In this document: positions 22,492 to 55,823 of the stretch, piece by piece
Layout of the letters: the number at the start of each line of letters is the position of its first letter
Position numbering within the stretch: the stretch's first letter is position 1
Assembly: GCF_002761295.1 (NCBI RefSeq)
Contig: NZ_CP017881.1
Coordinates: forward strand, 347,213 to 411,212
Source: Methanohalophilus portucalensis
GTDB lineage: Archaea > Halobacteriota > Methanosarcinia > Methanosarcinales > Methanosarcinaceae
DNA length: 64,000 nt
Direction: 5' to 3'
Position numbers and translations under genes: made by a program
The notes under the pieces: generated by a model
The model's input: the letters and a program-made list of their open reading frames with translations, nothing else
Database searches by the model: none
Told to the model about the DNA's origin: nothing

Positions 22492-22966
22492 CTTCTTTCC
22501 TACTTTATATTTGCTCAGTTTGTATAATTTCACTTCAAATTTATTTTTTGGAAGCAGACTTTATAGAGTTTAACTATTAATAAAAGTTACTCTTTAAAAA
22601 ATAATTATGATAACTCTATAGTAGCCCTTTCAACTAGTAAAATATTGTTTTAACAAGGAAAAGTTCCCACTGTGTGATTTGGGCTAAATCAAGCACAAAG
22701 AGGATGAATGTTTTTCAGGTTGGGAAAGTGGAACTCACATTAAATTTGTGATTTAATGGCATGTCAAACAATTATCTAAATTTTGTCTATACAGCTATAT
22801 CTATAGCTGGCAAATTACGTCTTCCAATCTACAGTGAAAATTATACCAAACGAAAATATACTCAATACCAGTTAATTACATTGTTATCTCAAAGAGTATT
22901 ATACGAATAAGGACTATAGATATGTTGCTGAATTTATTGATTTAATGCATTGAATTCAATTCAAGA

Positions 22967-23347
22967 TTGGTAAAAAAACACATATCTCACTTAACAACAT
23001 TACATAACTTTACCCTCCGAATTCCTTCGTTCTATTTCAATAGCTTACTACACCAAACTCTGGAATTCTTCTATTTAAATGGTGAAAAGATACCATTGAT
23101 TGCTATTGATTCAAGTGGATTTACAGGAGGGAAATGTAGTTACTATTGTTCTGTAAGAACAGAAAAAAGACTCTCGTATTTGAAAGTAAATATAGACATT
23201 GATGTTGAGAGGTTAATTAAAACTGGTTTTAGGACCCCAGGTAAATCTGTGCATGGTGTAAAAAATGCAGATACATTGCTTAGCCAGTACCACAAAAGAA
23301 GAAAAGCGGATTGTTATTTGAGAAAAAAGTATATGGTTCATAGATGA
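22967..23347 (+). pseudogene. IS4/IS5-family transposase fragment (start of DDE domain only)
   Basis: IAIDSSGF motif resembling the first Asp region of DDE_Tnp_1; only 126 aa, no downstream DDE residues. Confidence 0.35.
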
Positions 23348-23576
23348 TAAATGATTTAATTAAAAAACCGTTGAAAGTGGCAACCTTCACACATATAAGA
23401 GGTGATAAATAAAGACTATAAAAACATCTCGAAAAATTAAGGACGAATTAATTAAATACGTCTGCAATTACAGAAATCTGGCAGAGGCAAATTTTTCTGT
23501 ATTGAAAAGAAAAAAAGAACTTCTGAAAATACTATAAAGGAGATAGCATAAGTTTTTCTACTTCTTGTATTTACAG

Positions 23577-39493: not shown

Positions 39494-41338
39494 ATGAGTA
39501 AAGACGACCACAAGATAGACGCAGATGATCGGAACATTTTCGATGTGCTCAATGAACGCAAATACACAGTCGATTACTTTCAAAGAGAATACAGCTGGGA
39601 ACAAAAGCACATGGAGCAACTCATTACTGACCTGACTTCCACCTTTCTCGATGTTTACACAGAAGGAGATCCCAGAACAGCAGTCGAACATTATAACAAC
39701 TATTATTTAGGTCCTTTTGTGGTCAGCAGCAAGAATAGTATGAAAAGTATAATCGACGGACAGCAACGATTAACCTCCTTAACACTGTTTCTTATATACC
39801 TCAACCATATACAGAAGGAGCTCGGCATGAGTGAATCAATTGAGTCCCTGGTATTCTCTGAAAAATATGGACAGAAATCTTTTAATATTCAGGTACCTGA
39901 ACGCCAGGCTTGCCTTGAAAAGCTCTTTATTAAAGGCTGGTATGAAATTCAACCCGAAGATGATGAATCGACCATCAACATGGTAGAACGTTATTCTAAT
40001 ATTGAGCAAGCTTTCCCTGAGGAGATAAAAGGTACAGCTTTCCCCTACTTCCTTGACTGGCTGAAATACAACGTGATACTTGTAGAAATCACAGCTTACT
40101 CTGATGACAATGCCTACACTATTTTCGAGTCAATGAACGACAGGGGATTGAACCTAACATCTACTGAAATGCTCAAAAGTTACATCCTTTCACGCTTTAG
40201 TGATCAAACAGATCGGGCGAAAGCCAATCGTTTTTGGAAAGAATCAATACAGAAACTTCACAAACATAACAAAGATGAAGATCATCAATTCTTTCAGTCT
40301 TGGCTTAGGAGCCAATATGCCGATACAATACGTCAGGGTAAAATGGGATCTTCAAATGAAGATTTTGAGAAGATTGGGACTCGTTTCCACAGTTGGGTTC
40401 GTGATAATCTTTCAAAAATGAAACTCAACCCAGAATCGCCGGATGATTTCCGAGAATTTGTACATATAGAGATGAAATATTACCTGAAAGCATATTTGAA
40501 TATTCTAGATGCACAAAAAGAAGAGAAAAAAGGATGGGAGCACGTTTTTTATATTAAACACTGGGGAATCGCTCCCTCTCTTGCTTTTCCACTGATGCTT
40601 GCTCCACTGAAATCAACCGATTCTCCAGACATTACACGTCAAAAAATAAATGAAGTAGCTCGTTACATTGAAACTTTCACTGTTAAACGTTCCGTCAATT
40701 TCCGGAAATTTGGTGCTAGCTCAATCCGCTACACAATGTATACTCTGGTGAAAGAACTTAGAGGAAAAGAACTTGACTCTCTGAGATTATGTTTGCAGAA
40801 TAAACTCAGTGAAATGGATGAATCATGGGATGGAATCGCTCATTTCAGGATGCATGGACAGAATCGTAGATTTATTAAGTTCCTATTATCTCGGATTACT
40901 GGATTTATTGAGCAGCAATCAGGCTATTCTACAAATTTCTCGACATATTACATCAATAATGGATCAAAGCCCTATGAGGTAGAGCATATTTGGGCAGATA
41001 AATTTGTGGAACACCGAGATGAGTTTGAGCAACAACATGAATTCGAAAGATACCGTAATCATATAGGAGATCTAGTACTGTTGCCACAAGGTACGAACCA
41101 ATCTTACGGAGATAAGCCTTACTCTGAAAAACTCGAACACTACTTAAAGGAAAATTTGCTGGTCAAATCTTTGCACCCCAAAGCATATGAAAACAATCCC
41201 AATTTTGTTAGTGCTACTCATAAATTGGAAATTAATTTCAAGCCACACAAATCATTCACCAAGAAGGATATTGATGAAAGACAAGCATTGATTCAGAATA
41301 TTTGTGAGGTGATATGGGGAGATGGAGAGAGATCCTGA
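39494..41338 (+). CDS. DUF262/DUF1524 (GmrSD-like) predicted DNA-modification-dependent nuclease
   Basis: N-terminal ParB-like DGQQR motif; C-terminal His-Me finger-like region (EVEHIW ... HIGDLVLL...N). Confidence 0.7.
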   Translation: MSKDDHKIDADDRNIFDVLNERKYTVDYFQREYSWEQKHMEQLITDLTSTFLDVYTEGDPRTAVEHYNNYYLGPFVVSSKNSMKSIIDGQQRLTSLTLFLIYLNHIQKELGMSESIESLVFSEKYGQKSFNIQVPERQACLEKLFIKGWYEIQPEDDESTINMVERYSNIEQAFPEEIKGTAFPYFLDWLKYNVILVEITAYSDDNAYTIFESMNDRGLNLTSTEMLKSYILSRFSDQTDRAKANRFWKESIQKLHKHNKDEDHQFFQSWLRSQYADTIRQGKMGSSNEDFEKIGTRFHSWVRDNLSKMKLNPESPDDFREFVHIEMKYYLKAYLNILDAQKEEKKGWEHVFYIKHWGIAPSLAFPLMLAPLKSTDSPDITRQKINEVARYIETFTVKRSVNFRKFGASSIRYTMYTLVKELRGKELDSLRLCLQNKLSEMDESWDGIAHFRMHGQNRRFIKFLLSRITGFIEQQSGYSTNFSTYYINNGSKPYEVEHIWADKFVEHRDEFEQQHEFERYRNHIGDLVLLPQGTNQSYGDKPYSEKLEHYLKENLLVKSLHPKAYENNPNFVSATHKLEINFKPHKSFTKKDIDERQALIQNICEVIWGDGERS

Positions 41339-41631: not shown

Positions 41632-42441
41632 ATGAATTCAAAAATAGACACACTAAGCAATCTACTTCCAAAAGTTGCTGATATATTCATTTCTGAAAAT
41701 CCAGTAATCTATGTAGGTACCGATTCTGTTATGGTAATCGGTGACATTCATGGTGACTTAAAAGCCCTTGATCTCATTCTAAAAATGCAAAAGAAAATCA
41801 ATTGTGAAAGAATGATTTTTCTCGGGGATTATATTGATCGTGGACCTAATTCTGTTGAAGTTTTGAATAAGCTGTTTAGATTAAAAATTGCAGACCCAGA
41901 TAAAATAATTCTACTTAGGGGCAACCATGAAACTGCAGAAATGAACTATTGTGGTGGATTTTATGATGAACTCGGAAGAGATGATTCATTGTTTGTCCTG
42001 GCAAATCATGTATTTGAAGAGATGCCAATAGCTGCAATAATCTTTAATCGAATATTTTGTGTGCATGGAGGAATTCCGGGGTCTCAAAAAATACATAGCA
42101 TAGAAAAGTATCATTCATTTGAATATATCTGGAATGATCCATCTGAATTAAATGGGATGCATTCGTCTGCAAGAGGCGATGATATCAAGGAATATGGGCC
42201 TGATATCACTTCGGATTTTCTGCAAATCAATGGGTTGGAATTGATTATAAGAGGCCATAGCGCTCTAAAAGAGGGATACAAATGGTATTTCAATGAAAAA
42301 TTGCTATCGCTTTTTTCAACCCCAAATTATCGTAGTCTATTCAATGTTGCGGCATTTGCAGTAATTAAAGATGAGAACACGAAGATAGTTGTATTCGGAA
42401 CTTCAGACGGAAATGATTACTCTTTATTAGATTCAGTTTAA
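41632..42441 (+). CDS. PPP-family Ser/Thr protein phosphatase (metallophosphoesterase)
   Basis: GDIHGD, GDYIDRG, GNHE motifs. Confidence 0.75.
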   Translation: MNSKIDTLSNLLPKVADIFISENPVIYVGTDSVMVIGDIHGDLKALDLILKMQKKINCERMIFLGDYIDRGPNSVEVLNKLFRLKIADPDKIILLRGNHETAEMNYCGGFYDELGRDDSLFVLANHVFEEMPIAAIIFNRIFCVHGGIPGSQKIHSIEKYHSFEYIWNDPSELNGMHSSARGDDIKEYGPDITSDFLQINGLELIIRGHSALKEGYKWYFNEKLLSLFSTPNYRSLFNVAAFAVIKDENTKIVVFGTSDGNDYSLLDSV

Positions 42442-43042
42442 CTTTGCTCTGATAGAAAAATGCCTTTCTGTTGTAAATCGGCCAATTGATACTACAAATA
42501 AATAGAAATCAACGTATATGATTGATTATGCCTTTCAAGAATGAATAAATTTTTCTTCAAAATGCAGTTTGTCGAATCAGAAAAAGTGATTACTCGCTTT
42601 TCCTCTTCTAAGAACCGTAAGTTAAAGTTTCACTTATCTGAATATTATCTATTGTCATATCACACATATTTAGATCAAGTAATTTTAATTAGATTTTCCA
42701 CATTTCCAACCTCTCCTAACATGAGAATTCAAACTAAAAGGTTTACCAGATTTAACATCCTGCTTCATAGAATGCAAGGTGCCTTAAGAAAAACCATTTT
42801 CTTCCATTCAGAACAAGGCATATCAAGAACATTCTGGCTATAACCCTCTGAAATAGCCCTTTTAACCTCGCAGCAGAATTAATAAAATACTGTGACATGC
42901 ACTTCTCAAAATTCGTGTATATGAATACATTACGTGCAAGACGAAAACCTTTATATTTAAAGACCGCTAATTTACTTATACTAATGAATATTGCTTTGAC
43001 CATCAAAGCAGGTTCGGCTTTTGACTTGTACTGTGCGGGGCA

Positions 43043-43069
43043 ATCTCGCCCGAGGCTTTCTATTTCCAG
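43043..43069 (+). repeat. degenerate copy of tRNA-Thr 3' end (putative attR)
   Basis: aatctcgcccgaggcttt matches tRNA 3' end aatcccgcccgaggcttt at 17/18; preceded by gcgggg. Confidence 0.5.
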
Positions 43070-43223
43070 GCCAATATCTATTTTGATATATTATCCAATG
43101 AGATTTTTAGGGATGTATCAAATTCATAATATACTTTTACATAATAATCTTTTTTTGAGCATGCTTAATTATATATCTATTGTCGCCCAAACTTTTAGAC
43201 GTACATAATTTGTGGGAGGTGAA

Positions 43224-43400
43224 TGGAAATGGTAAAATGTGGAGTTTGTGGTGGTGATGCACCAAGACAACCAAATGTCACAGAAGATGGGAAATGTGAC
43301 CTTTGTGGAAAGAAGTTTGTTCTTGAAGAAGAAAAGAAGCAGAAGGACTGAATGGGATATAAGTTCTTGGACTTATATTTTTAAGAATAAACCCACATGA
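43224..43400 (+). CDS. small zinc-ribbon protein (59 aa)
   Basis: GGGAGG SD 4 nt upstream of ATG; CGVC...CDLC. Confidence 0.3.
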
Positions 43401-43877
43401 ATCAGGGAAAGCAAGAATGCCAAAAAGGATAGAGGGTTAGGTTTATTTACCTGATTCATTGCTCATTTACTTAGATCTCACTTAATCAAATTCTTTTTCA
43501 TCCAGATAAGCAAGTTGAATATGTATGACTTTTTGGTTCCACTCCTATAAAGAACCAGATTGATGCATTTGGTGACTATGATGTTATATGTTGTTAGATC
43601 AAAGTGCTGTGCAGGGATAGTTGCATACTTTAATCTATCTCTTACTTTATTGTATATCGATTCGTGTTTATTTCTTATAAATAAGTCTTGGAATAGGGCT
43701 CTGTAGAAACCCTTTCCTCTCACTTCCACTAATACAATACGATTTTTTTCAAATTAAATCACTTCTTAAAAATACAATGAAGCCCCTCCCTCTACTGAAA
43801 ATTTCAAATAGCAAAACTTATACAACTTACCATCAATCATTTGCTGGAAAAATAAAATATGAAAGGGGTACTAAAAA

Positions 43878-46800
43878 TTGGGAGATATTAAACTCAATCC
43901 TTCACAATCACAGGCAGTTGATTATACAGATGGACCACTTCTCATACTCGCAGGTCCTGGTTCTGGCAAAACCCTGACCATTACGGAAAAAGTCGTAAAC
44001 CTTGTGGATGAAGGATTTTCTCCTGAACGCATACTTGCCCTGACATTCTCTGAAAAGGCCGCAGGAGAGATGGAGGAGAGAATTGAAAACCGCATTGGAG
44101 AATCCAGCGCAATTACAGTATCCACCTTTCATTCCTACTGCAATGATTTGCTCAAGGAGTTCTCCCTCTATGTTGGCATTAATCAGGGTACCAGACTGAT
44201 TTCACAGGAACATTCCCATGTCTGGGGAATAAACAATATCGACTCCTTTGGTTTTGAGAACATTGCGATTCCCAACAGACCCTATGATCTCATCACAAGC
44301 CTGCTGGAGGGTGTGTCTCAGTTACATGACCATCTGGTAGGTCCGCAGGAATTGCAGGATTTTGTCACGCGAAAGCTGGATGAAACCGTTGATGAAGAAG
44401 AAAGGGATGAACTGCTCAAACTTGCCGACATTGCCAGGTTCTATTCACATTACCAGCAGTACAAAAGGGACCATAATTTCATGGATTACGATGACATGAT
44501 CACAATGACATGTCGCCTGCTGGAAAACAATGAAGTTGTTCGAAATCAGATTCGAAACAGATATGATTACGTCCTGGTAGATGAATTTCAGGATACAAAT
44601 TATGCCCAGCTTTATCTTATCAATCTAATTGCTGATGGCACAAATCTTACCTGTGTTGCTGATGATGACCAGTGCATCTACAGATTCAGGGGTGCCTATC
44701 TTTCCAATATCAAACAACTGCAGGATTACTATGCATCCCTTGAGAAAATACCCCTGGATCGCAATTACAGGTCCAGCTCACAGATAGTACAATTATCCCA
44801 GCAATTGATTGCAACAAACCCGGAAAGGGAAGATAAGACTCTGCATTCCCACAATGGCGATGGGGAGAAAATAAAGGTAGTAAAATCCCCGGATGATTCC
44901 AGTGAGGCTCAATGGGTTGCAGATGAGATTCAGCGGCTGATTGAAGAAGAGGATATTACTCCTGAAGAGATCTTTGTACTTACCAGGAAACGTGCTGATG
45001 GGAAAAAGTACAGTGATGCATTGAAAGGCAAAATGATCCCTGTGGAATATGTGGGCAATCTGCAGCTTAAAAATTACCCTATTGTACAGGAAGCCCTGGC
45101 CTACATGCATATTGTCGCTGATCCTTTCAACAATGGAATTGCTTTTGCTAAAGTGTTTGCAAGGGAAGGAGTAAGTGAACATGACCTCCAGAAGATCAAT
45201 ACTGTTGCAAAAAAACTCAGCCGGGAAACGGAACTGGAAGGGGACGGAATCTATTCTGTGCTGCAACACCATCTGGATGATGTCCCTATAATCCAAAAGG
45301 CACTTGTCAAATCCATCCTTGCCAGGCTCAATGAACTTATCGATTACAGGAAGAATCACCTGCCCTCTGATACTGTGAAGTATCTGTTATCCGAGAAAAC
45401 CGACCTATACAGGGCCCAGTTGCTTGCAGATACCCTAGCTTCCAGAAGGAATATTCATATCCTCAATTCCCTGACCAGTATGGTACAAGATCTGGAACTT
45501 GTGGACGGGGGTTCTGAATTTGCCAGGGCTGTTGAATATCTGGAACTTGTTTTCAATCTGGATATCGGGGATGAGGAAACCAGTGAGGAAAATACTGTTA
45601 AAGTCATGACCATCCATCAATCAAAGGGTAAGGAAGCAAAGGTTGTCTTTGTCTGTGATATGGCTGACCGCCATCTTCCCCTGAGATTCACCAAAAAGCA
45701 ATTCCGTGTTCCCCGGGAACTTGAGAAAGGTGTGCAGAGGGATGTGGAGGATAAAATCCTGCATCTGGAGGAAGAGCGCAGGCTGGCCTATGTAGCCATG
45801 ACCCGGTCCAGGGAAAAACTGTATCTCACATTTCCTGAAAAATATGCAGGCAACAAACGAGGTATTAAGCCCAGTGAGTTTGTCACCCAGTTAGATTATG
45901 AATCCAATCCCCTGATTGAATACATTGAAACTGACAAGTTGCAGGACACAGAGACTGTTACCACAGAATCGCCATTGAAAGGAAAACAGGACGAATATCT
46001 CAGGCTTTTGAACATGTATGCCGGCCAGGGCCAGATGAAGCAGGCACTGGAAGCACTGGTTGTGCTGGCTCAGTTAAAAGAGATAGAGAATAAGGGCAAC
46101 CTGGCTGTATTTGATATTGAGGAGTTTTTGAAGATCACACCCAAAGAGATGGGAGAATTGGAGGCACTGGTGAATGAAGATTTACCACCTCTTGTAGATT
46201 CTGATATGCGTTTCTCAGCGTCCAAGATCAGGCAATACATGGAGTGTCCCCTGAAATTCAAGTATAGCAATGTACTGAATATACCGATTCCTCAAAAGAC
46301 ATTCTTCCAGACAGGAACCGATGTGCATTCTGTATTTGAACAGCTTTGCAGGCACAAGATGCAGGGCGAGTCCATTGATATGGAACTTGCCAATCGTATC
46401 CTGGATAAAACCTGGGATGGCTCTGTTTTCGATTCAGAGACCCACGAGCAGCAGGAACTTGAAAGAGTCAGGCAGATGCTGGAATACTGGTTTGAGTTTG
46501 AGGAAAGTAATGTCAATGAAACGATTGCTGTGGAGGAAAAGTTCAATCTCAAACTGGATGGAGCACAGTTTGGAGGAGTAATTGACCGAATCGACCAAAC
46601 CCCTGCGGGCGATTATATTGTTATTGATTACAAGACCAGCAAAAGTCCATTGAGCAAGAACAAGATGCCAGAAGATGTACAACTTGCCCTGTACTGCCAG
46701 GCTGTCAGAGAGAGGTATGGTAAATATCCGGTCAAAGCGGGACTGATGTATGTCAATCCGAAGGTTCGGGATCTCAGGTTAATGGATGTAGACGAAGCAC

Positions 46801-46934
46801 AGATCAATTCTGTACTTGATGGTGTCAGGGGGATAGTAGCAGATATTAAGGCCGAGGATTTTGAGGTCAAGGAAGAGCCGAATTGTTATTTCTGTGATTA
46901 TAAAGGGATTTGTGAGTGGTACAACCATCAATGA
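43878..46934 (+). CDS. UvrD/PcrA-type SF1 helicase fused to C-terminal PD-(D/E)XK (RecB/Cas4-like) nuclease
   Basis: TTG start; Walker A AGPGSGKT; helicase motifs (DEFQDT, TIHQSKGKEA); C-terminal VIDYKTSK and CYFCDYKGIC Fe-S cysteines. Confidence 0.8.
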   Translation: MGDIKLNPSQSQAVDYTDGPLLILAGPGSGKTLTITEKVVNLVDEGFSPERILALTFSEKAAGEMEERIENRIGESSAITVSTFHSYCNDLLKEFSLYVGINQGTRLISQEHSHVWGINNIDSFGFENIAIPNRPYDLITSLLEGVSQLHDHLVGPQELQDFVTRKLDETVDEEERDELLKLADIARFYSHYQQYKRDHNFMDYDDMITMTCRLLENNEVVRNQIRNRYDYVLVDEFQDTNYAQLYLINLIADGTNLTCVADDDQCIYRFRGAYLSNIKQLQDYYASLEKIPLDRNYRSSSQIVQLSQQLIATNPEREDKTLHSHNGDGEKIKVVKSPDDSSEAQWVADEIQRLIEEEDITPEEIFVLTRKRADGKKYSDALKGKMIPVEYVGNLQLKNYPIVQEALAYMHIVADPFNNGIAFAKVFAREGVSEHDLQKINTVAKKLSRETELEGDGIYSVLQHHLDDVPIIQKALVKSILARLNELIDYRKNHLPSDTVKYLLSEKTDLYRAQLLADTLASRRNIHILNSLTSMVQDLELVDGGSEFARAVEYLELVFNLDIGDEETSEENTVKVMTIHQSKGKEAKVVFVCDMADRHLPLRFTKKQFRVPRELEKGVQRDVEDKILHLEEERRLAYVAMTRSREKLYLTFPEKYAGNKRGIKPSEFVTQLDYESNPLIEYIETDKLQDTETVTTESPLKGKQDEYLRLLNMYAGQGQMKQALEALVVLAQLKEIENKGNLAVFDIEEFLKITPKEMGELEALVNEDLPPLVDSDMRFSASKIRQYMECPLKFKYSNVLNIPIPQKTFFQTGTDVHSVFEQLCRHKMQGESIDMELANRILDKTWDGSVFDSETHEQQELERVRQMLEYWFEFEESNVNETIAVEEKFNLKLDGAQFGGVIDRIDQTPAGDYIVIDYKTSKSPLSKNKMPEDVQLALYCQAVRERYGKYPVKAGLMYVNPKVRDLRLMDVDEAQINSVLDGVRGIVADIKAEDFEVKEEPNCYFCDYKGICEWYNHQ
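46739..46934 (+). repeat. direct repeat copy 1 (3' end of helicase-nuclease gene), partner at 50638-50833
   Basis: ~195 bp at ~90% identity to 50638-50833. Confidence 0.8.
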
Positions 46935-47199
46935 AGAAAAATCCATGTATCTAAATAATATATATTAAGTGTGTATTGGTTTTAAAATATGCCTCAAAAT
47001 ACTTCTATAACCCTTTTAGTTCTCTAGAAAACCGGTCCTTTATTTTTTAATGAAGTGTAACCAATAAAAGTAACGAGGCACTCTGTATTTTTTCTAGCCA
47101 AAATCACACAGGCAACTTCTTCTTATTAAAATAATAAATATTAGTGGAAATAAGAGGAAAGTTTTCTACAGAGCCCAATTATGTCTGATTTATATATTT

Positions 47200-48276
47200 T
47201 CAACTCGAACTGATAGCTTTAAAATTTTCAATTTTATCCAATTCTGGATAAAAAGAAGTTATTAATAAATGGAGATGTTCTTGAATGTTGGAAAACTCCG
47301 TATTCAGGTCAAGTGTTTTTACACTTATTCTGTTGCCACCCAGCATATAATCATTGTCTGGAGTTATTTCTTCATCTGTTTTGGCATAAAGCAGTACACC
47401 ACTAACATTTCCTGAATCTTCTTTGTCTCTGTTCTTTACGTAGGTATATATCTGATACATATTTGAGGAATGCTGAGAGCGAGTATTGTAGAGTGTATGC
47501 ACCTGCATCATATTAGAATAATATTTGGTATCAATTATCAAAGTTCTTCCAGCATATTCTATCGTGACATCTGATCTCATGGTAGGTAAAAATTCAATTA
47601 TCCCATCATCAGTGTCCCAACCAATATTGGAAGCTTTGACAGATAATTCTGGATAATGCTTACGATAATACTCGAGAACAAACTTCTCGAATAATCGGTG
47701 CATGTACTGATCATCTGTATATTGGTACAAGTCTTGATTTCCATCCTTTTCGCTTAAAAGCATCCCCTTGATCACAAGATAGCAAATATTGATCAACATT
47801 TTGTAAGTAGAATTATTTCGATGATATTTTATCCCGGTCCACTGAATTCTATAGGGATTAAGATCATCAACATTATGGAAGTGTAGTAAAACCTTCTTTA
47901 AAGTGTACTTTCGAGATTTTCCAACGTCAGAAGAGCGTAATAGGAGATGAGTGGTGGTTTTGAGTATCTGGTTCAGGTAGGTATTTTCTGTGAACTCATC
48001 AAACTCACATACTAGTTTTTTATTAATTAAAGTCTGTCTCTTTATAGATTCAGGAATGCTCATCTTTCCTACTGGCCTTGTTAGCTCATCTGATCTGCAA
48101 ACATATTCACGTCCCAAACCACGTCTTATTTGGTTAAATATACCTTTGCCGAGTATCACAGCAAGCAAATCATGAGGATGTTCGAATTCCTCAGCTGTTA
48201 TGGTTGAATAACTACCTTGATTAAGAACCTGGAAAGCATAAGAAAGCATATGATAGATGTTCTTAACCCTTATCAT
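47200..48276 (-). CDS. mcrC: McrC-like PD-(D/E)XK nuclease subunit
   Basis: 358-aa; DVTIEY...IIDTKYY motif; overlaps the McrB-like gene by 4 nt. Confidence 0.65.
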   Translation of the reverse strand: MIRVKNIYHMLSYAFQVLNQGSYSTITAEEFEHPHDLLAVILGKGIFNQIRRGLGREYVCRSDELTRPVGKMSIPESIKRQTLINKKLVCEFDEFTENTYLNQILKTTTHLLLRSSDVGKSRKYTLKKVLLHFHNVDDLNPYRIQWTGIKYHRNNSTYKMLINICYLVIKGMLLSEKDGNQDLYQYTDDQYMHRLFEKFVLEYYRKHYPELSVKASNIGWDTDDGIIEFLPTMRSDVTIEYAGRTLIIDTKYYSNMMQVHTLYNTRSQHSSNMYQIYTYVKNRDKEDSGNVSGVLLYAKTDEEITPDNDYMLGGNRISVKTLDLNTEFSNIQEHLHLLITSFYPELDKIENFKAISSS

Positions 48277-50387
48277 TTAATGCTCCCATAAAGTGTTTTC
48301 TTCCATTGCTCTATTTTGTCTTTCTCGTCAAACCAGTATTCTTCAAGCAATGGAACTATTTCATATTCAATAATTGAAGATAATATATCGTTGCTTACAT
48401 TACCTTCTAGGCAAAAGAAACTGTGTCCAACTTTGAAACCTTCTCCAAGAGATTCATCCTGGGCTATGAATTCATTTAAAAGCTTGACCTGTTCTATCAG
48501 CTTACTAAACCGGGAATTGTTTGAACTGGTAACCATCGTTTGAAATCCTTCAGAATCAAATGCCGGCTCAATATTGAAAAAAGCAAATCTTCTTCTAAGT
48601 GCATAATCTATCATAGCTAAACTACGGTCAGCAGTGTTCATGAGGCCAATAATATGAACATTTGGGGGGACTGAAAAAAGTTCATCAGAATAAATAATAC
48701 GTAACTTCTCACCACGTTTATCATTCTCGATCAACATCATTAGTTCACCAAATATCTTGCTGAGGTTACCTCGATTGATCTCATCGATGATAAAAAAGTA
48801 GTCATTTTCATCATCTTCTTGAGCTTGCTTACAAAATTCATAAAATGGCCCATGGTTTAACTCGAAACCATTTTCTGTGGGCCTATATCCCATGATAAAA
48901 TCTTCATAGCTATAACTTTGATGAAACTGAACCATCATAACTCGGTTTGGATCCCAAGTTCCCATGATAGAACATGCCAGTCTTTTGGACACAAATGTCT
49001 TCCCAACACCAGGGGCACCCTGAAGTATTATATTCTTCTTTGATTTCACCAGAGCTACAAGAGTATGATAACGTTCAGAATCCATGAAAACATCTTCGAG
49101 AAAATCATCCTCAGTATATTCTGGATAAGTAAGCTCTACTTCATTTTGTAATTCTTCTTCAGCATCATCAAAAAACAGAGCTTTTAATTTTTTGCAATAT
49201 GCTGTATAAGGGGTGATATCAGTAAGCATTTTAGTTACGGCTTTTCCCGGATGAGGCCATTCTCCCTTATGTGTCCAATTAACTTTACGTATATTTTTAT
49301 ATTCATCACGACTGTTATCAAAAATATATTCGGACTGGACCACACCTCTTCCAATTACTTTGGATTGGCCTTGTTTTGCATAAATTATATCCCCTGGCTT
49401 CATTTCATTTGTAAATTGCCAGGTGGCATGTGCTGCATTCCTATAAGAAAATTCTTCACCATAAAATTCCTTCATTTTATTTTTCATGGATGTTTTTGAA
49501 GAATATTGTCTCAAATCACCAATTTCGCCCCTTCTAATTCCCATAATTCCATTTTGATAGAACTCGTTCCATTTTTTAGCTTGCCTACCAGGAGAATATA
49601 GCCAATATCTCACTTCCGTTTGTGGAGTAGGATCTATCGTGCTACTTCCTTCCCTGGGATCTTTTTTTATCCAGGCGTTATAAGAGAGTTCAGGGAAACT
49701 TTTGACCACCGAATCTTCCTTTTCAAAGAGATACTTGCATTTATCGATAATCTCCAAATATTCTTCTGAATTGGGCAGTTTCAGGTCGGATATACCAGCT
49801 ATTTGTTTACCAAATATATTTTTAGTATCAATCAAGTAATCTCTATTAGTTTTATCAAGGTTAAGATACGAATAAGGGCGAATCCAGTAAAGACCCATGG
49901 TAATATTCCATCTAATGCCAGATTGTTTTCTCACTATATCAAAAAAGTTCTTGAAATTAACACGGTTGGTTTCTGAAGGTTCATCTGCAAAATTGATAGC
50001 TGTCTCGAATAATTGCCATAAATTATCAATTGATTCCTCTATATTTTCAGATTTAAGTGAATAAAACAATGTTCGCATGTTATTCAGGATTGGTACTCCT
50101 TTAAGATCAGATGGAGCATCAGTTTCCACTCCTATTTTTAACCCAATACTTTTCATTAGAGCAATTCGGTTCTCATCAGTCAAACCCCGATTAAAACAAC
50201 CAAAAACAGTGAATGGTCCAATATCGTTTAATGGTCCATCTTTTTGTATAAAATGGTTATGAAGATTTAATTTATCGTATTCATCTTTAAGTATTTGGAT
50301 TAGAGCTTGTCTGTTATTTTGATATAATAAGAGCTTATCTGCAAATTCACTGTAAAATTGTACCCAGGTAAAACTATAATTTTCCAT
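48273..50387 (-). CDS. mcrB: McrB-like AAA+ GTPase with N-terminal reader-type domains
   Basis: LQGAPGVGKTF Walker A; FIIDEINRGNLSKIFGEL McrB signature; long N-terminal extension. Confidence 0.75.
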   Translation of the reverse strand: MENYSFTWVQFYSEFADKLLLYQNNRQALIQILKDEYDKLNLHNHFIQKDGPLNDIGPFTVFGCFNRGLTDENRIALMKSIGLKIGVETDAPSDLKGVPILNNMRTLFYSLKSENIEESIDNLWQLFETAINFADEPSETNRVNFKNFFDIVRKQSGIRWNITMGLYWIRPYSYLNLDKTNRDYLIDTKNIFGKQIAGISDLKLPNSEEYLEIIDKCKYLFEKEDSVVKSFPELSYNAWIKKDPREGSSTIDPTPQTEVRYWLYSPGRQAKKWNEFYQNGIMGIRRGEIGDLRQYSSKTSMKNKMKEFYGEEFSYRNAAHATWQFTNEMKPGDIIYAKQGQSKVIGRGVVQSEYIFDNSRDEYKNIRKVNWTHKGEWPHPGKAVTKMLTDITPYTAYCKKLKALFFDDAEEELQNEVELTYPEYTEDDFLEDVFMDSERYHTLVALVKSKKNIILQGAPGVGKTFVSKRLACSIMGTWDPNRVMMVQFHQSYSYEDFIMGYRPTENGFELNHGPFYEFCKQAQEDDENDYFFIIDEINRGNLSKIFGELMMLIENDKRGEKLRIIYSDELFSVPPNVHIIGLMNTADRSLAMIDYALRRRFAFFNIEPAFDSEGFQTMVTSSNNSRFSKLIEQVKLLNEFIAQDESLGEGFKVGHSFFCLEGNVSNDILSSIIEYEIVPLLEEYWFDEKDKIEQWKKTLYGSIK

Positions 50388-50584
50388 AATATTGCACCTA
50401 TTTTGTAATTATTTTGATAGCAAAAGTATTTATTTCTTAAACTGGCTTCAAAACCAAAAATATTATTGCTTCCATTTATAGTTTGAGGGTTGGGTGGAAT
50501 TTTTAAAACCTACTAATAAATAGTGGAAATATATTAAACAGATTTTTATTATTATGTGCTTTTTAGTCATGTTGATGATTTAGA

Positions 50585-50833
50585 TTGCTCCAAATAGAGT
50601 GTGCCCAATGGGAGACACTGAAATATAATATTGAAATGGGGCTGATGTATGTCAACCCGAAGGTTCGGGATCTCAGGTTAATGGATGTAGATGAATCCCA
50701 GATCAATTCTGTACTTGATGGTGTCAGGCAGATTGTGGCAGACATTAAGGCCGAGGATTTTGAGATCAAGGAAGAGCCGAACTGTTATTTCTGTGATTAT
50801 AAGGGAGTTTGTGAGTGGTACAATGAAAGTTGA
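50585..50833 (+). pseudogene. orphan duplicate of the last ~65 codons of the helicase-nuclease gene (direct repeat copy 2)
   Basis: GLMYVNPKVRDLRLMDVDESQINSVLDGVRQIVADIKAEDFEIKEEPNCYFCDYKGVCEWY closely matches the C-terminus of the 43878 protein. Confidence 0.6.
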
Positions 50834-50884
50834 AAGGAGGAAATCCCTCCTAACAGAAGCATTTGTTATCTAAAAAAGTGAGAA

Positions 50885-51304
50885 TCAATATTTCTTATGA
50901 TGGGGGTCTTTTTGAAATCCCAGAGCTTTTGAGGCTGCATAGTCAGCCTTTTCATTCTGTTCTCGAGGAATCCATTCCAGTTCTATTGAATTGAACTGTC
51001 TGACTAGTTTTTTAGCAGTCTGGCAGGGACCTTTAAGGTTATCACTTTTTACAGACCATTTTCCATTGACTTGATTTACTACAAGTTTGCTATCTCCCTG
51101 TACATTGATGTCAGTCCAACCAAGTGCTTGTGCCTTTTTTAATCCTTGAATTAGGGCATTGTACTCTGCTTCATTATTGGTGCCAGTCCCTTCAAGCATT
51201 TCGGATATTTCATGTAGGACCTGTCCATTGTCAAGAAGAACTGCTCCGATTCCTCTTTTACCGGGGTTTGGTATTGCAGCTCCATCAAATTGAATTAGTT
51301 TCAT
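50885..51304 (-). CDS. rnhA: RNase HI-like ribonuclease H
   Basis: FDGAAIPNPG N-terminal motif; conserved NNEAEY and QGDSKLVV carboxylate positions. Confidence 0.7.
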   Translation of the reverse strand: MKLIQFDGAAIPNPGKRGIGAVLLDNGQVLHEISEMLEGTGTNNEAEYNALIQGLKKAQALGWTDINVQGDSKLVVNQVNGKWSVKSDNLKGPCQTAKKLVRQFNSIELEWIPREQNEKADYAASKALGFQKDPHHKKY

Positions 51305-51514
51305 TTATTCATAGATTTTAAATATCATATAAAGAAGTTTTGCTATTTATTGTTTGTAGACTGATTTCATGAATCATTACATATGAAATTATGTTTTTTT
51401 AATCCGAAGTTGACTGTTAAAGGAGGGATATAAGGATAATAGGAAAAAATAAACTAATTTTAGCTTTTTTGTTTACTGGAATGTACCTACAATAAGAAAT
51501 ATTCTTTAAATACT

Positions 51515-52483
51515 TTATTTTAAATCTAACCAATCAAATAGTTCTCTATATTGTTGATCAGTATAAACTCTGAAACTTAGCCCATCCCTCCAGGTGTTTA
51601 TTTCGATGAGGTCAGTAAATTTGCTTTTTAAATGTTCTTGAGCACCTTCATAATCTCCTTTTATATAGGCAGTGATATATTTGTGTCTGAAATTAACACT
51701 AATCCAAGTAAATCCATCATAATTGCTTCTAATATTTGAAAATCTTCTTCTTTTTGGTTCACCGGGACTATATTTTTTACATATAGCTATAGCTTCCTCT
51801 GCAAATGAGTATTCAAATTTAGGAAGTAAATCTTTCCATTCTATTTCACTTGTAACCTTATTTTTTATGGTTTGACTTCCACGAATTTCGTAAGCATCTT
51901 TGAGCTCTTTTAATGGATATACCTGTTTTAAAGCAACAAATTTTTGATGATCTAATCTAAAAATAGATATTGAAAATGCAGTTATATCCACAGAATAGTT
52001 ATTACTCAACCAATCAGCAGTTATTATGACTTCAGGATCATAATATTCAGCAATTAATACAATCTTTATATTTGGATTTATTTCCATGTCCTTCAATAAA
52101 TCAATTAATTCTGTAGAATCAGAATTACATTCTGATTGTATATTAGCAATAACTTTTTCTGAATTCCATGTGTTCACCATTGCTGCATATGAAAGGGATT
52201 GTAATAATTGTAGTTTATTTTTGCTTCTTTTTAATTCAATCACTATTAATGAAGATTCGTTTGGTTCATAAGCAAGTAAATCGATTGAGTCATTTGTAGC
52301 TTCATGCGGCTTAATTTCTTCACCAATCAAAAATGAATCAGGCAACTCAATTTCATTTTTAAATAAATCCCAGGAAGATAGTATAGTTTTTTGAAGATCA
52401 TATCTTTCAAGGATATTTTCTTCTTTTAAACTGGTTTCCTCCATCATTTCAAGACAATGATTTTCCATATTCAATCGTAACAT
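51515..52483 (-). CDS. predicted PD-(D/E)XK-like nuclease domain protein
   Basis: IDLLAYEPNESSLIVIELKRSK resembles D...E.K restriction-endonuclease-fold core; remainder unknown. Confidence 0.4.
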   Translation of the reverse strand: MLRLNMENHCLEMMEETSLKEENILERYDLQKTILSSWDLFKNEIELPDSFLIGEEIKPHEATNDSIDLLAYEPNESSLIVIELKRSKNKLQLLQSLSYAAMVNTWNSEKVIANIQSECNSDSTELIDLLKDMEINPNIKIVLIAEYYDPEVIITADWLSNNYSVDITAFSISIFRLDHQKFVALKQVYPLKELKDAYEIRGSQTIKNKVTSEIEWKDLLPKFEYSFAEEAIAICKKYSPGEPKRRRFSNIRSNYDGFTWISVNFRHKYITAYIKGDYEGAQEHLKSKFTDLIEINTWRDGLSFRVYTDQQYRELFDWLDLK

Positions 52484-52843
52484 ATCTTTACCCCACCAAT
52501 TGGCAATCGGTTTGATTTATTCAATGTTAATTGATATACTCAGAAGGTTTCGGTCGTAGACTAATAAGAGTTATGTAAAATCGAATAATTATGTTTGATT
52601 TCATATAAGGATGAAATGAACATTATATGGTGATCACATAAAGAACAATGCTTTCTGAACAGATCAATCGGCTCATCATAAAAAGAGAGCTGGAATTTGC
52701 ACAACACTTCAGGCGGTACACTTCCCAGTCTGTATAACCAAAATCACATTGGCGGTACTCTTCTTATAAAAATAATAATGTATTAGTGGAAGTTAGAGGA
52801 AAGGGTTTCTACAGAGCTGGAAAATTAGCTAAATGCTAACTTC

Positions 52844-53242
52844 ATGCAAAATACCACAAAAAATATAGTTGATAATGGTTGCATATTATTGATTGCTATG
52901 TCTGATGAAGATCTGAAGAAAAGAAAAGAGGAATGGCTTAGTAAAGTCAGAAAAGAAGGTAAACTCAACCGCAACCCAACTGAAGATCACAGCACCGGGC
53001 TAAAAACTCTTCAGAATAGCATTCGCAGAAGGATATTATCTCTTCTACTGGAATCACCCCTGAGTCTCGAAGATTTGCAAAATGAAATGGAGCTGAACAA
53101 AATGGAGGCCAAGTTCCATATAGGAATGTTGGAAAATGCCCTTTACGTTGAGAAAGAGGAGAAAAACGGAATTATCGTGTATTATGGTTCTCCACGGGCA
53201 GAAGCATATATGGAAAATGTAAAAAGTGGAGGACATAAATGA
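52844..53242 (+). CDS. ArsR-like winged-helix transcriptional regulator
   Basis: IRRRILSLLLESPLSLEDL HTH segment. Confidence 0.45.
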   Translation: MQNTTKNIVDNGCILLIAMSDEDLKKRKEEWLSKVRKEGKLNRNPTEDHSTGLKTLQNSIRRRILSLLLESPLSLEDLQNEMELNKMEAKFHIGMLENALYVEKEEKNGIIVYYGSPRAEAYMENVKSGGHK

Positions 53243-53505
53243 CTATTTCTATGGATGACAAAGAGTCGAATTGGGAAAAGGACTTCTCGAACTTAAAAGA
53301 CACCATCATGCAGGATGGTGCTATCGATAATAAAACTAAAAAACTGCTGGCTCTTGCAAGTGCTGTGGCTGTGGGATGTGATGAATGTGTATCCCACCAC
53401 AAAAAATTTGCTAGCGATGCAGGTTTAAAAGATTCCGAAATTGAAGAAGCAATTCTAGTAGCATCACTGATTCGTCTGGGATCAGGACTGCGACATGTTG
53501 ACTAA
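53239..53505 (+). CDS. carboxymuconolactone decarboxylase/AhpD-family protein
   Basis: CDECVSHH (CxxCxxxH) AhpD-core motif; overlaps upstream stop (ATGA). Confidence 0.65.
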   Translation: MTISMDDKESNWEKDFSNLKDTIMQDGAIDNKTKKLLALASAVAVGCDECVSHHKKFASDAGLKDSEIEEAILVASLIRLGSGLRHVD

Positions 53506-54422
53506 AAAGGAAAAGTAAACTAAGATTATTTTTTTACAGGAAAAAATACGAAGGAGAGAAGGAATTATAGCTCTTCCAATGTATTTATCGAAAATTTTGG
53601 TTAGGCATTAAATGGAAGGTTTATGTGAGAGAAAAAACCAGATTTTGTTGGCCCGACTGTCACTCGAAAATACTGATAAAATTTACCAAGGGTCCCTACT
53701 AACGATTATCTGCTGCAAAAAGCATCTCAAATTTGCAATTTATGACGGAATTTGCTTGTCATAATTCTACATGATACAATCTTCAACAACCATTCTCGAC
53801 TCTGCGTTTTCCCCTTTACAGGCATATCCATGCCTTCCATACTCTACTATCATCTACGATGCGTAGCATCGTATGTACGTTTGCAACAAGCAACTGTAAA
53901 AAGATGGAGAAATAATTGCAGGACAAAAATTGATTATGGGTAATATGGTCTGCAAGTACTTTGAGGAATAAGGACATCATTATTCTTAAATCATATAACA
54001 TCAAGTATATTCATCAGATGTATCTAACGATGTAATGTAGCATTAATTTACGTTAAAGTTGCTGATTCTGCCATTAGAAATTCAGAAATCTGCAAAGAAT
54101 TATAATTCAAAAATTGGCCGGGTGCTGAACCATTCCAATAAAAATCAGGAATAACAGGCCTGGATAAAGAGGCACCTACAGTCGATTATAGACCATATTT
54201 GAAAAGCAGCACATGGAATAGACCGCTTCTTCGCATGGTTGAAGTTGGATCTGAAAATAGTATGTAGGTATTAATGGCTGTGGCCTTTCAGGGGAATCTA
54301 GATATTCCACTTGTGCTATGCTGGGATAGGTTATCCGCAGTTTTGAAATAAGCCCGATCTTAAGTATTTGTTAAAGCAATGTCAATGTTTATATTTAAAT
54401 TAAATATTAATCAGGATATGTC

Positions 54423-55823
54423 ATGCAAAAGAGTAAATTGATTTCTGTTCTTGTAATTGTCTTTCTGTCCCTTTCCTTTCTGGGTTGCACAGAAGAAGTA
54501 AACTCAAACGGGGAAATTCCGGAGGAGCAAACATCGGCAGATAATGTTTCAACTCCGGATTCACCGGAAACTGATGTAAAAGTGTACAATGCAACCCTGA
54601 AGAAAACTGCGATACTGGATATTGATAATGGTTATTCCCTGAAGGTACTGGAGATAAACCGAAAAGACGGCTATTCGACCTTATCTCTGAGGAAAGACGG
54701 CTATGAATATGGTACTAAAAGGATATTTGTCGGCCGCAGTTATGATGTATGGGACCCTGAAGAGCAGTTCATAGTTTATTCAATCAAACTGGAAAGTATA
54801 TACGATAACAGTTTTGTCATCGACTTATCATACACTTTGAAACCGGAAATATATCTGTATGTGGATTTTCCTGACCTGGATAGTGAAAGGAAACCAACGG
54901 TCAGAATCGAAAAAGACTCAATCACCAGGAACTATGTATGGGAGTACGACGACAGGCAATTCCAGCTCCAGGCCAGATATGACAAAGAAGCTTATGAATT
55001 ATATTCACAGAGAACCCGTTATCGCCATTGGGTGCATTTTGTAAATGACCCTTATGATGATGCATTCATATCACAGATTACATTACAAATGGAAAATCTG
55101 GCAGAAGAAGCAGATTACGGCCGGGAGGAAATTCCTTACATAACCATGCTTTTTGTCCAGTCTCTTCCTTATGTCAGTGACAGTGTTTCTGCCGGTTATG
55201 ATGAATATCCCAGATTCCCATTTGAAACAATGTACCACGGAGGCGGGGATTGTGAAGATTCCTCTATCCTGCTTGCGGCACTTTTGTATGACATGGGATA
55301 TGGCGTGTCTCTGATTGAATTACCCGGTCACATGGCTGTGGGGGTAAAGGGCAGCGATGACCTTCCCGGAAGTTATTATGATTATTCGGGAGTGAAATAT
55401 TTCTACCTTGAAACAACAAATTCAGGCTGGGAATTGGGCAGGATTCCCACTGTATACAGGAATTCCGATGCCCGGATAATTCCCATTACTGCCGGCTATC
55501 CAGAAATTGCAGTTGACTTTGCAGGCAGTGGAAGACATGATTCCCGTTTTTCCTACATTGACCTTGACATCGAGGTAGAGAATGTTGGTTCTGCAAAAGC
55601 CGAAGATGTCATTATTTACACAGGTCTTGAAGCCACGCAGGAGGGCATGGTCTGGGATCAAATTGCAAGCGACCAGATCCCGGAGATTGATGTGGAAGAA
55701 GCAGTTTCTTATGAGATTTCAAACCTGAAGGTCCCTGTAGGTGAGACTTATCGGATCGGAATCCGGGTTGTGGGGTCAAATACTGGTGTGGAGTATGTCT
55801 ATAGTGATTGGCATGTTTCCTGA
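54423..55823 (+). CDS. transglutaminase-like lipoprotein
   Basis: signal peptide with lipobox-like LGC; GGGDCEDSSILLAALL Cys core; paralog of the 1376 gene. Confidence 0.55.
   Translation: MQKSKLISVLVIVFLSLSFLGCTEEVNSNGEIPEEQTSADNVSTPDSPETDVKVYNATLKKTAILDIDNGYSLKVLEINRKDGYSTLSLRKDGYEYGTKRIFVGRSYDVWDPEEQFIVYSIKLESIYDNSFVIDLSYTLKPEIYLYVDFPDLDSERKPTVRIEKDSITRNYVWEYDDRQFQLQARYDKEAYELYSQRTRYRHWVHFVNDPYDDAFISQITLQMENLAEEADYGREEIPYITMLFVQSLPYVSDSVSAGYDEYPRFPFETMYHGGGDCEDSSILLAALLYDMGYGVSLIELPGHMAVGVKGSDDLPGSYYDYSGVKYFYLETTNSGWELGRIPTVYRNSDARIIPITAGYPEIAVDFAGSGRHDSRFSYIDLDIEVENVGSAKAEDVIIYTGLEATQEGMVWDQIASDQIPEIDVEEAVSYEISNLKVPVGETYRIGIRVVGSNTGVEYVYSDWHVS

Follow-up and report, generated by a model that had tools for sequence, protein, structure and literature searches.

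The locus described here lies in a 64,000-nucleotide (nt) stretch of the Methanohalophilus portucalensis genome (the window), where a two-gene McrBC-type restriction cassette, mcrC-mcrB, is enclosed by two diverged copies of the 3' end of a helicase-nuclease gene. Copy A completes the working gene, and copy B stands 3.9 kb downstream as an isolated fragment. Comparison with related genomes suggests that copy B is the original end of the gene, displaced when foreign DNA carrying the cassette and a replacement end was captured by host recombination. The features on which this reading depends are the following.

43878-46934, plus strand: intact gene for a UvrD-type helicase with a PD-(D/E)XK (Cas4-like) nuclease, 1018 amino acids (aa), assigned by Pfam.
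46739-46924, plus strand: repeat copy A, 62 codons of the working helicase gene that stop 3 codons short of its end, delimited by alignment.
47200-48276, minus strand: mcrC, 358 aa, PF10117 McrBC (1.6e-31), guanine-plus-cytosine (GC) content 35%.
48273-50387, minus strand: mcrB, 704 aa, AAA_5 NTPase with DUF8425/DUF8426 N-terminal domains and a McrB lid, assigned by Pfam.
50388-50637, no strand assigned: region upstream of mcrB, the putative right end of the imported segment, without a homologue in any relative.
50638-50833, plus strand: repeat copy B, a helicase 3' end of 62 codons plus a terminus in ES and the stop codon, collinear with empty-site genomes.
50885-51304, minus strand: RNase HI gene (Pfam RVT_3 and RNase_H; NCBIfam RNase HI), the ancestral downstream neighbour of the helicase gene.

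A repeat search of 44000-53000 returned a single long direct pair, 46722-46924 and 50621-50823, which is 203 nt long at 89% identity with a spacing of 3899 nt. Solid homology by MAFFT and BLAST covers 46739-46924 against 50638-50823, where 171 of 186 nt are identical (91.9%) without a gap, and the BLAST match of the repeat against the whole 64-kb window has E = 4.5e-74. BLAST detected no third copy in the whole window, and tblastn detected no other pieces of the helicase in it. Beyond TGGTACAA, the final 10 nt to the stop codons are allele-specific, with copy A ending in YNHQ and copy B in YNES. Copy B is an isolated gene fragment, which some pipelines call as an 82-aa open reading frame (ORF) from 50585. 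The window was taken from contig RJJH01000015.1 of GCA_003722115.1, and GCA_900177455.1 is identical to it over 20 kb. In addition, the cargo, both junctions and both copies are spanned by three independent read-set assemblies. Because the two NCBI assemblies and the three read-set assemblies agree, the repeat arrangement is genuine and not an assembly artefact.

Species-representative genomes were scanned with the helicase protein, which gave loci in Methanohalophilus profundi (L010), M. euhalobius (L003), strain RSK (L004), a metagenome-assembled genome (L002) and other genera. Loci of M. mahii (L024), strain WG1-DM (L028-L030) and metagenome strains (L025-L027 and L031) were added by exact-protein look-up. 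Among the loci compared, the repeat structure is present in one species only, M. portucalensis. In M. profundi (L010) and WG1-DM (L028-L030), the RNase HI gene comes next after the helicase gene, without cargo, and this empty site is observed directly. Window 50639-51360 corresponds to L010 12862-13583 as an unbroken alignment at 95.7%, and window 50621-51374 corresponds to L028 12845-13595, also unbroken, at 93.5%. The RNase HI protein has 97.8% aa identity to its L028 orthologue. Because copy B and its downstream flank are collinear with the empty-site genomes, copy B is the displaced ancestral end of the helicase gene, still beside its ancestral neighbour. In M. profundi, the helicase reading frame is shifted near codon 39 (L010 10001-10130, with the frame reopening from 10126), which may mean either a pseudogene or a sequencing error; the WG1-DM gene (L028) is intact.

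The two copies differ from each other as alleles do. They are distinguished at 15 sites, 10 of them synonymous (codons read by eye), and at 4 of 62 residues. At 9 of the 15 sites both states are seen among the alleles of other species, and copy A is separated from the alleles of all other species by 11-22 sites. The 8% divergence between A and B is larger than the 4-5% found between orthologous flanks of different species. The sequences that follow also belong to separate types. The A tail is common to M. euhalobius (L003), L031 and M. mahii, in which the sharing ends at 46960; the B tail is common to M. profundi (L010) and WG1-DM (L028); and a third tail type occurs in RSK and L002. By these findings, A and B are diverged alleles (xenologues) drawn from the pool of the genus and not duplicates made in place.

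Between the copies lie 3703 nt (46935-50637), in which mcrC and mcrB are the sole genes. The two genes overlap by 4 nt, the AAA_5 match of McrB is 3.3e-24, and McrB_lid is among its precomputed Pfam hits. By gene content the pair would correspond to an McrBC type IV (modification-dependent) restriction system. It resembles known systems in its adjacent McrB (AAA_5 with an N-terminal DNA-reading domain) and McrC (PF10117), arranged as an overlapping two-gene operon. It differs in that the N-terminal domains of this McrB are DUF8425/DUF8426 and not the E. coli McrB DNA-binding domain. The cargo has a GC content of 34% against 44% for the helicase gene. A McrB of 100% identity occurs in M. portucalensis only; the next match is at 75% in Methanosalsum natronophilum, where the homologue adjoins an unrelated DEAD/ResIII helicase in a different context, followed by Firmicutes at 57-67%. 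Because of this difference in GC content, and because the nearest McrB is only 75% identical and belongs to another genus, the cargo is foreign.

No integrase, recombinase or transposase was found in 46935-50637, and no integrase was found elsewhere in the annotated 23-kb neighbourhood. At the right end of the segment, helicase homology starts abruptly at 50638 after a patchy 14/21 match (AAATAT, then 12 scrambled nt). A putative novel illegitimate junction is placed by this pattern at 50620-50638, probably as the right end of the imported segment. An insertion sequence (IS) fragment was considered at this junction and rejected: a 21-nt similarity at 50511-50531 failed, and there was no match there to a terminal inverted repeat (TIR) or to a miniature inverted-repeat transposable element (MITE).

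What the initial annotation had read from the letters of the window holds in part under this comparison. It had reported a duplicated helicase gene end bracketing a 3.7-kb segment with only mcrC and mcrB as genes, and both points are confirmed by the alignments above; a non-coding mcrC stub and a solo IS end inside the segment had been missed. Its proposal of an insertion or replacement event agrees with the empty site of the relatives (L010, L028-L030). The idea that the incoming DNA supplied the working 3' end of the gene is supported, and its question of whether 50638-50833 is the ancestral gene end finds an answer in the collinearity with the L010 and L028 flanks. Its remark that no integrase is present is correct for the segment and for the annotated neighbourhood.

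The island also carries debris of other events, with the following features.

46925-47019, plus strand: A-type tail of the M. euhalobius type, with the HQ codons and stop, a promoter region and the first ~9 codons of a plus-strand mcrC (46989-47019).
47081-47175, plus strand: solo alpha end of an IS5-family element, tip at 47175, 24 nt from the mcrC stop, with the IS interior deleted.
52728-52818, plus strand: solo IS5 alpha end, tip at 52818, 26 nt before an ArsR-like ORF; it truncates brxL.
43697-43747, minus strand: solo IS5 alpha end, inverted, tip at 43697, at the left edge of the conserved helicase block.
51375-52630, minus strand: separate 1.26-kb insertion with orf322 (51515-52483), junctions mapped against L028, GC content 28.7%.
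52631-52734, minus strand: 3' stub of brxL, the last ~34 codons, 90-91% identical to intact brxL in L003, L004 and L028.

Window 43745-47017 aligns with L003 9869-13140, so that the alignment runs from the helicase block into the stub, where the window reads MPQNTSITL and the L003 McrC starts with MSQNTSITL. The mcrC 5' stub is a remnant of an earlier, different cargo and shows the replacement of one McrBC by another. At the other side of the RNase HI gene, the 1.26-kb insertion replaces 35 nt of the RNase HI-brxL spacer. Its orf322 (322 aa) matches only the PADLOC PDC-S11 candidate-defence models (7e-29), with no Pfam or NCBIfam family. The brxL stub, which tblastn matches to BrxL aa 648-674 at 81%, is the sole remnant here of a bacteriophage exclusion (BREX) system that is intact at this place in M. 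euhalobius, RSK and WG1-DM; M. profundi keeps a longer brxL remnant. In sum, partial replacements are stacked in this island.

The three IS ends in the window are all the same alpha end without its interior, and each stands at a boundary between conserved and variable sequence. The end at 47081-47175 is 81-82% identical to MITE-like ends from metagenomes and has the exact TIR TTTCTACAGAGCC; M. mahii has an orthologous IS end after its helicase gene (L024 13076-13127). The end at 52728-52818 is 92-96% identical to metagenome MITE ends and 83% identical to 47088-47176. The inverted end at 43697-43747 is 92% identical to the MITE ends with the exact TIR GGCTCTGTAGAAA, and homology to relatives starts at 43734-43745. 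A metagenome scan with the IS-end core gave 8 contigs, in which ~100 nt are conserved to ...CTACAGAGCC and the flanks beyond are all different. Complete MITE-like copies of 595 bp (L033 7786-8380) and 381 bp (L034 148-528) carry the 13-bp TIR GGCTCTGTAGAAA at both ends. Their interiors match a decayed copy at window 22629-23513, and the interior ORF of the IS element matches NCBIfam transpos_IS5_2 at 4.5e-25 (transposase fragments). The ~90-nt repeats are accordingly classed as the ends of an IS5-family insertion sequence or MITE with two different subterminal ends.

Several smaller observations concern these ends. The 381- and 595-bp MITE-like derivatives appear, from the metagenome sequences, to be active in brine. 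A TATA-like TTATAAAAATAATAA lies in the alpha end, facing outward at ~40 nt from the tip, and the IS5 end could drive neighbouring genes, such as the ArsR-like ORF that begins 26 nt from the tip at 52818. Near the leftmost end, window 42695-42862 includes ~135 nt that are 74-77% identical, in inverted orientation, to a region ~300-700 nt upstream of the helicase gene in RSK and M. mahii, which suggests a small inversion beside that end. The two IS ends flanking the helicase gene were considered as one transposon, and this was rejected as both are the same (alpha) end. The junction motif (~37 nt) was also considered as an orphan CRISPR repeat and rejected, since the L028 array beside the helicase gene has an unrelated repeat. 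A search for known RNA families across 42000-54500 gave two chance-level matches only, and the junction motif had no match among viral contigs.

The site beside the helicase gene is variable throughout the genus. The helicase product matches UvrD-helicase (2.9e-72), UvrD_C (1.7e-41) and PDDEXK_1 (8.5e-40) in Pfam, and its orthologues are 93-97% identical within Methanohalophilus and 60-68% identical in Methanolobus, Methanococcoides and Methanosarcina. The gene belongs to the conserved core of Methanosarcinales and anchors the hotspot. Six other Methanohalophilus genomes hold different contents at the site, or nothing. The cargo is a plus-strand McrC-McrB-Mrr set in M. euhalobius (L003), with proteins just 23-38% identical to those of the window; two ORFs of no assigned function in strain RSK (L004); an SNase-like gene, an OLD-family ATPase and a Type I restriction-modification system in M. 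mahii (L024); and a Type I restriction-modification system with a DEAD helicase in metagenome strain L025. At least seven different contents are found at the site in Methanohalophilus, and more in other genera, such as Wadjet-like genes in Methanolobus ZRKC2. A convergent BREX operon follows further on in L003, L004 and L028, and also in Methanolobus profundi and probably in Methanococcoides.

A second helicase end was found at none of the 15 loci with other cargo (0/15), at the nucleotide or the protein level. The duplicated end is thus a one-off, present in a single strain, and the site is a core-gene-flanked defence hotspot that is defined by the conserved helicase end and not by the repeat. 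The initial annotation had suggested that the repeats define a hotspot of defence-gene exchange; the hotspot stands, with its varied contents, and the role given to the repeats does not. It had also held that mcrBC at this position without a repeat in other strains would speak against its reading, and this is the case to a limited extent, as M. euhalobius has an McrBC here without a repeat, the system being a different one. One apparent second relic, P0245, a 70-aa helicase fragment starting with MYVNPK at the same breakpoint, was rejected as an assembly artefact at a contig edge, because it occupies the first bases of a metagenome contig that starts at a point from which co-occurring strains are identical over 32 nt.

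The combination of UvrD/PD-(D/E)XK gene and convergent BREX genes (brxL, pglZ and others) recurs in Methanohalophilus, Methanolobus and Methanococcoides with a variable slot between them, as seen in L003, L004, L028, L007 and L012 (10001 to ~23000 in each). The helicase-nuclease protein also scores 7e-95 against PADLOC GajB models. It might be a BREX- or defence-associated gene rather than a plain repair gene.

The history that we favour, by a modest lean, is the capture of a linear fragment through homology on one side and an illegitimate junction on the other, that is, homology-facilitated illegitimate recombination (HFIR) with C-terminal displacement as its outcome. The ancestor would have had the layout of M. 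profundi and WG1-DM, with the helicase gene, RNase HI and BREX in order. The incoming DNA would have come from a related Methanohalophilus chromosome and would have carried an A-type helicase end, the remains of an older mcrC, an IS5 end and the low-GC mcrC-mcrB pair. The host's own recombination machinery would have incorporated it. One side would have paired by homology inside the helicase gene, and the side upstream of mcrB would have been joined illegitimately in the middle of the nuclease-domain coding region of the resident gene, at 50637/50638. The gene would have kept working with the imported end (copy A), and the last 62 resident codons (copy B) would have been pushed 3.9 kb downstream as a dead fragment. 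Afterwards, A and B may have exchanged a short tract by gene conversion, unless the crossover itself fell in their left ~35 nt. Direct observations are the empty site, the collinear flank of copy B, the allelic difference between A and B, the lack of a recombinase, the single gene ends at sites with other cargo, and the debris; from these we infer which lineage gave the DNA, in which direction it moved and whether the incoming molecule was linear or circular. Similar abrupt junctions on other truncated genes of the island, the mcrC 5' stub and the brxL 3' stub, support this account.

The fine-scale data lean towards a linear fragment with a crossover ~20 nt left of the repeat. From M. profundi the sequence diverges by 2.1% over 46300-46720, by 22% over 46721-46738 (4 differences in 18 nt) and by 6.5% in the core. 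This lean is drawn because the change from 2.1% to 4 differences in 18 nt is unlikely to arise by chance (P = 0.0006), and it is as expected for an imported tract that starts ~20 nt before the repeat. Within the core, A/B divergence is 10.5% at offsets 1-19, 0% at offsets 20-54 and 9.8% at offsets 55-186. The identical stretch of 35 nt at offsets 20-54 is the longest run shared by A and B, and a run of at least 35 arises in 54% of random placements of the 15 differences (P = 0.54). Two private variants, at offsets 1 and 34, are common to A and B (P about 0.001). Because of these variants, the left ~35 nt of the copies either exchanged sequence by homology or share the crossover.

A number of points count against this account. 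The change point near 46721 consists of four sites only, and the difference in divergence between offsets 1-54 and 55-186 is not significant alone (Fisher P = 0.24). The two copies are about equally far from M. profundi, with 12 differences for A and 11 for B; because core identity to M. profundi fails to separate the copies, the call of resident against imported end rests on flank collinearity. By sliding-window identity, the helicase gene is a mosaic among species without one clean breakpoint, and a single recombination breakpoint in the gene was rejected on that ground, leaving just the local jump near 46721. No McrB above 75% identity was found outside M. portucalensis, and no donor genome was found. 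Finally, HFIR is known experimentally in bacteria, and no demonstration in archaea was found in the literature; its operation in archaea is assumed here.

The closest competitor is a Campbell-type integration, in which a circle with ~186 nt of the helicase 3' end, the A tail, the IS stub and mcrCB entered by a single homologous crossover in the helicase end. It predicts exactly two direct repeats, a repeat length equal to the shared homology and a sharp left edge. The divergence on both sides of an identical block (10.5%, 0% and 9.8%) is what such a crossover would leave, and the private variant at offset 34 lies inside that block, as crossover-linked conversion would give. However, it needs pure resident sequence left of the repeat, where the four M. 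profundi differences are clustered, and chance would already give a 35-nt run. In the collections searched, the cassette was found neither on a circle nor on a plasmid; Logan contigs of 3.8-3.9 kb were considered as excised circles and rejected, being 100% identical to the chromosome, from the same strain and broken inside the repeat. We consider this version unlikely, though worth keeping in view. The linear and the circular versions both rely on host recombination and give the same map. An integrative cassette that targets the helicase 3' end by site-specific recombination, carries a replacement end and has lost its integrase or uses one in trans would formally give the same outcome, a regenerated gene end with direct repeats around the cargo, and the 35-nt stretch could serve as its attachment (att) core. 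This reading, close to the analogy with tRNA 3'-end integrative elements drawn in the initial annotation, does not hold up well. Neither the segment nor its neighbourhood encodes an integrase or recombinase. The repeats have diverged by 8%, and the 35-nt run, considered as a special att core, is of a length that chance would give. Six other cargo types occupy the site without a second gene end, none of the 15 other loci being duplicated, and the A-type end with its tail is an ordinary undoubled chromosomal allele in M. mahii and M. euhalobius. The cassette was not found a second time in the searches, McrB being 100% identical in M. portucalensis only. The segment also includes the stub of another mcrC and a truncated IS, and because it carries such junk from earlier events it is not a compact mobile unit. 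We hold this explanation to be very improbable.

The IS5-family element offers another route, by which the IS with solo ends at 43697, 47175 and 52818 brought the cassette or made the junctions through composite transposition or adjacent deletion and inversion. The three alpha ends do lie exactly at conserved/variable boundaries, one of them 24 nt from the mcrC stop, and adjacent deletions made by transposase end at an IS tip. However, neither the right junction (50388-50637) nor the sequence beside copy B contains an IS end or fragment, no pair of alpha ends makes one transposon, and transposition does not give a 186-nt target duplication. The end at 47175 is moreover old, being 81% identical to active copies and common to M. 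mahii. The left cargo boundary and the loss of BREX may be the work of IS5 activity, but the repeat cannot be explained by it, and as an origin of the arrangement it is quite improbable. Duplication in place, either as a 186-nt target duplication upon mcrBC insertion or as a tandem duplication of the gene end followed by divergence, would produce direct repeats around an insert and would account for the private variants at offsets 1 and 34 in both copies. It is contradicted by the 8% between A and B, which exceeds the 4-5% of interspecies flanks, yet the structure is found in one species only; duplication followed by decay is ruled out on this basis. Of the 15 differences, 10 are synonymous and 9 are polymorphic in other species, unlike what a decaying pseudogene would show, and the copies end in different tails, each common to different species. 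This pattern of allele sharing appears effectively to refute duplication in place, which we regard as scarcely credible.

One-sided capture of a linear fragment has parallels in described systems. HFIR has been reported in E. coli conjugation (PMC3240628) and in transformable bacteria (de Vries & Wackernagel 2002, Prudhomme et al. 2002 and Meier & Wackernagel 2003, as cited in PMC5361080). The likeness consists in foreign DNA that enters with one homologous anchor and one illegitimate end without a dedicated recombinase, and in the possible deletion or duplication of resident sequence beside the insert. The difference is that HFIR was studied by experiment in transformable bacteria and E. coli, whereas here it is read from a natural footprint in a methanogenic archaeon. 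C-terminal displacement at Rhs, contact-dependent inhibition (CDI) and type VI secretion system (T6SS) effector loci leaves orphan 3' ends downstream (Kirchberger et al. 2017, PMC5361080; Jackson et al. 2009, as cited there). As in those loci, a constant 5' part gains a new 3' end and cargo, the old end persists downstream as a fragment, and successive events leave layered remnants. In Rhs, CDI and T6SS loci, the 3' ends are different toxins, and displaced pieces and immunity genes can still matter. In M. portucalensis, in contrast, a housekeeping-type helicase-nuclease serves as the anchor for a restriction system, and its two ends are close to identical in protein, with 4 differences in 62 residues.

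Integrative elements that target and regenerate the 3' ends of tRNA, tmRNA and protein genes (Williams 2002, as cited in PMC10121019) are similar in that an imported copy of its end keeps the gene intact and in that the insert lies between direct repeats. However, such elements have an integrase, identical att cores and recurrence at the same nucleotide with many cargos, none of which is seen at the M. portucalensis locus. Defence hotspots that are flanked by core genes and lack identifiable mobilisation are known from E. coli hotspot #37 (PMC10121019) and the core defence hotspots (cDHS) of P. aeruginosa (PMC10250203). They share the fixed position beside a conserved gene and the varying defence systems, often without mobility genes. 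The Methanosarcinales hotspot differs in being archaeal, in lying between the UvrD/PD-(D/E)XK gene and a convergent BREX, and in having preserved the remnants that show the course of one swap. In the limited literature searched, no earlier description of this locus was found.

The phenomenon is of known kinds, namely core-gene-flanked hotspots and 3'-end displacement by one-sided recombination, and the instance itself is new. It is the ordinary, though clear, footprint of a gene replacement in a busy defence-gene hotspot and not a new kind of mobile element. Its value lies in the route by which defence genes are exchanged. Defence islands turn over fast at fixed hotspots, often without visible mobility genes, and the route of a swap is usually guessed. 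Here one swap has left a scar, with the old gene end beside its old neighbour and with empty-site and alternative-cargo genomes for comparison. It makes a case for host recombination, anchored in a conserved flanking gene and completed by one illegitimate join, as a means by which a restriction system can be installed in an archaeon.

A wider claim can be framed, in which the helicase 3' end is used repeatedly as a homology anchor for swaps of defence cassettes without mobile machinery in Methanohalophilus and perhaps in other Methanosarcinales. We consider this generalisation rather doubtful. If it were true, M. portucalensis would hold the first natural trace of HFIR-type capture to be preserved in an archaeon. 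In a stronger form, the helicase-nuclease or the adjacent IS5 ends would actively promote exchange at their own locus. For annotation, the locus carries a warning, as none of the 82-aa 'PD-(D/E)XK' ORF, the stub of brxL and that of mcrC is a gene; all three are fossils. It also has a modest practical value, as the hotspot between the UvrD/PD-(D/E)XK gene and BREX in Methanosarcinales can be mined for defence candidates.

Further observations concern the island and its surroundings. Inside the island, a 466-aa ORF at 54423-55823 (plus strand), with no Pfam, PADLOC or NCBIfam match, follows the ArsR-like regulator and a CMD-domain protein, both of which are absent from M. profundi. The left flank of the helicase gene varies as well, with a type III CRISPR-Cas system and an 18-repeat array in WG1-DM (L028 8389-9714) and transport and redox genes in M. 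mahii. In the window, a GmrSD-type (type IV) restriction enzyme (39494-41338, plus strand) and a metallophosphoesterase (41632-42441, plus strand) are encoded upstream of the helicase gene.

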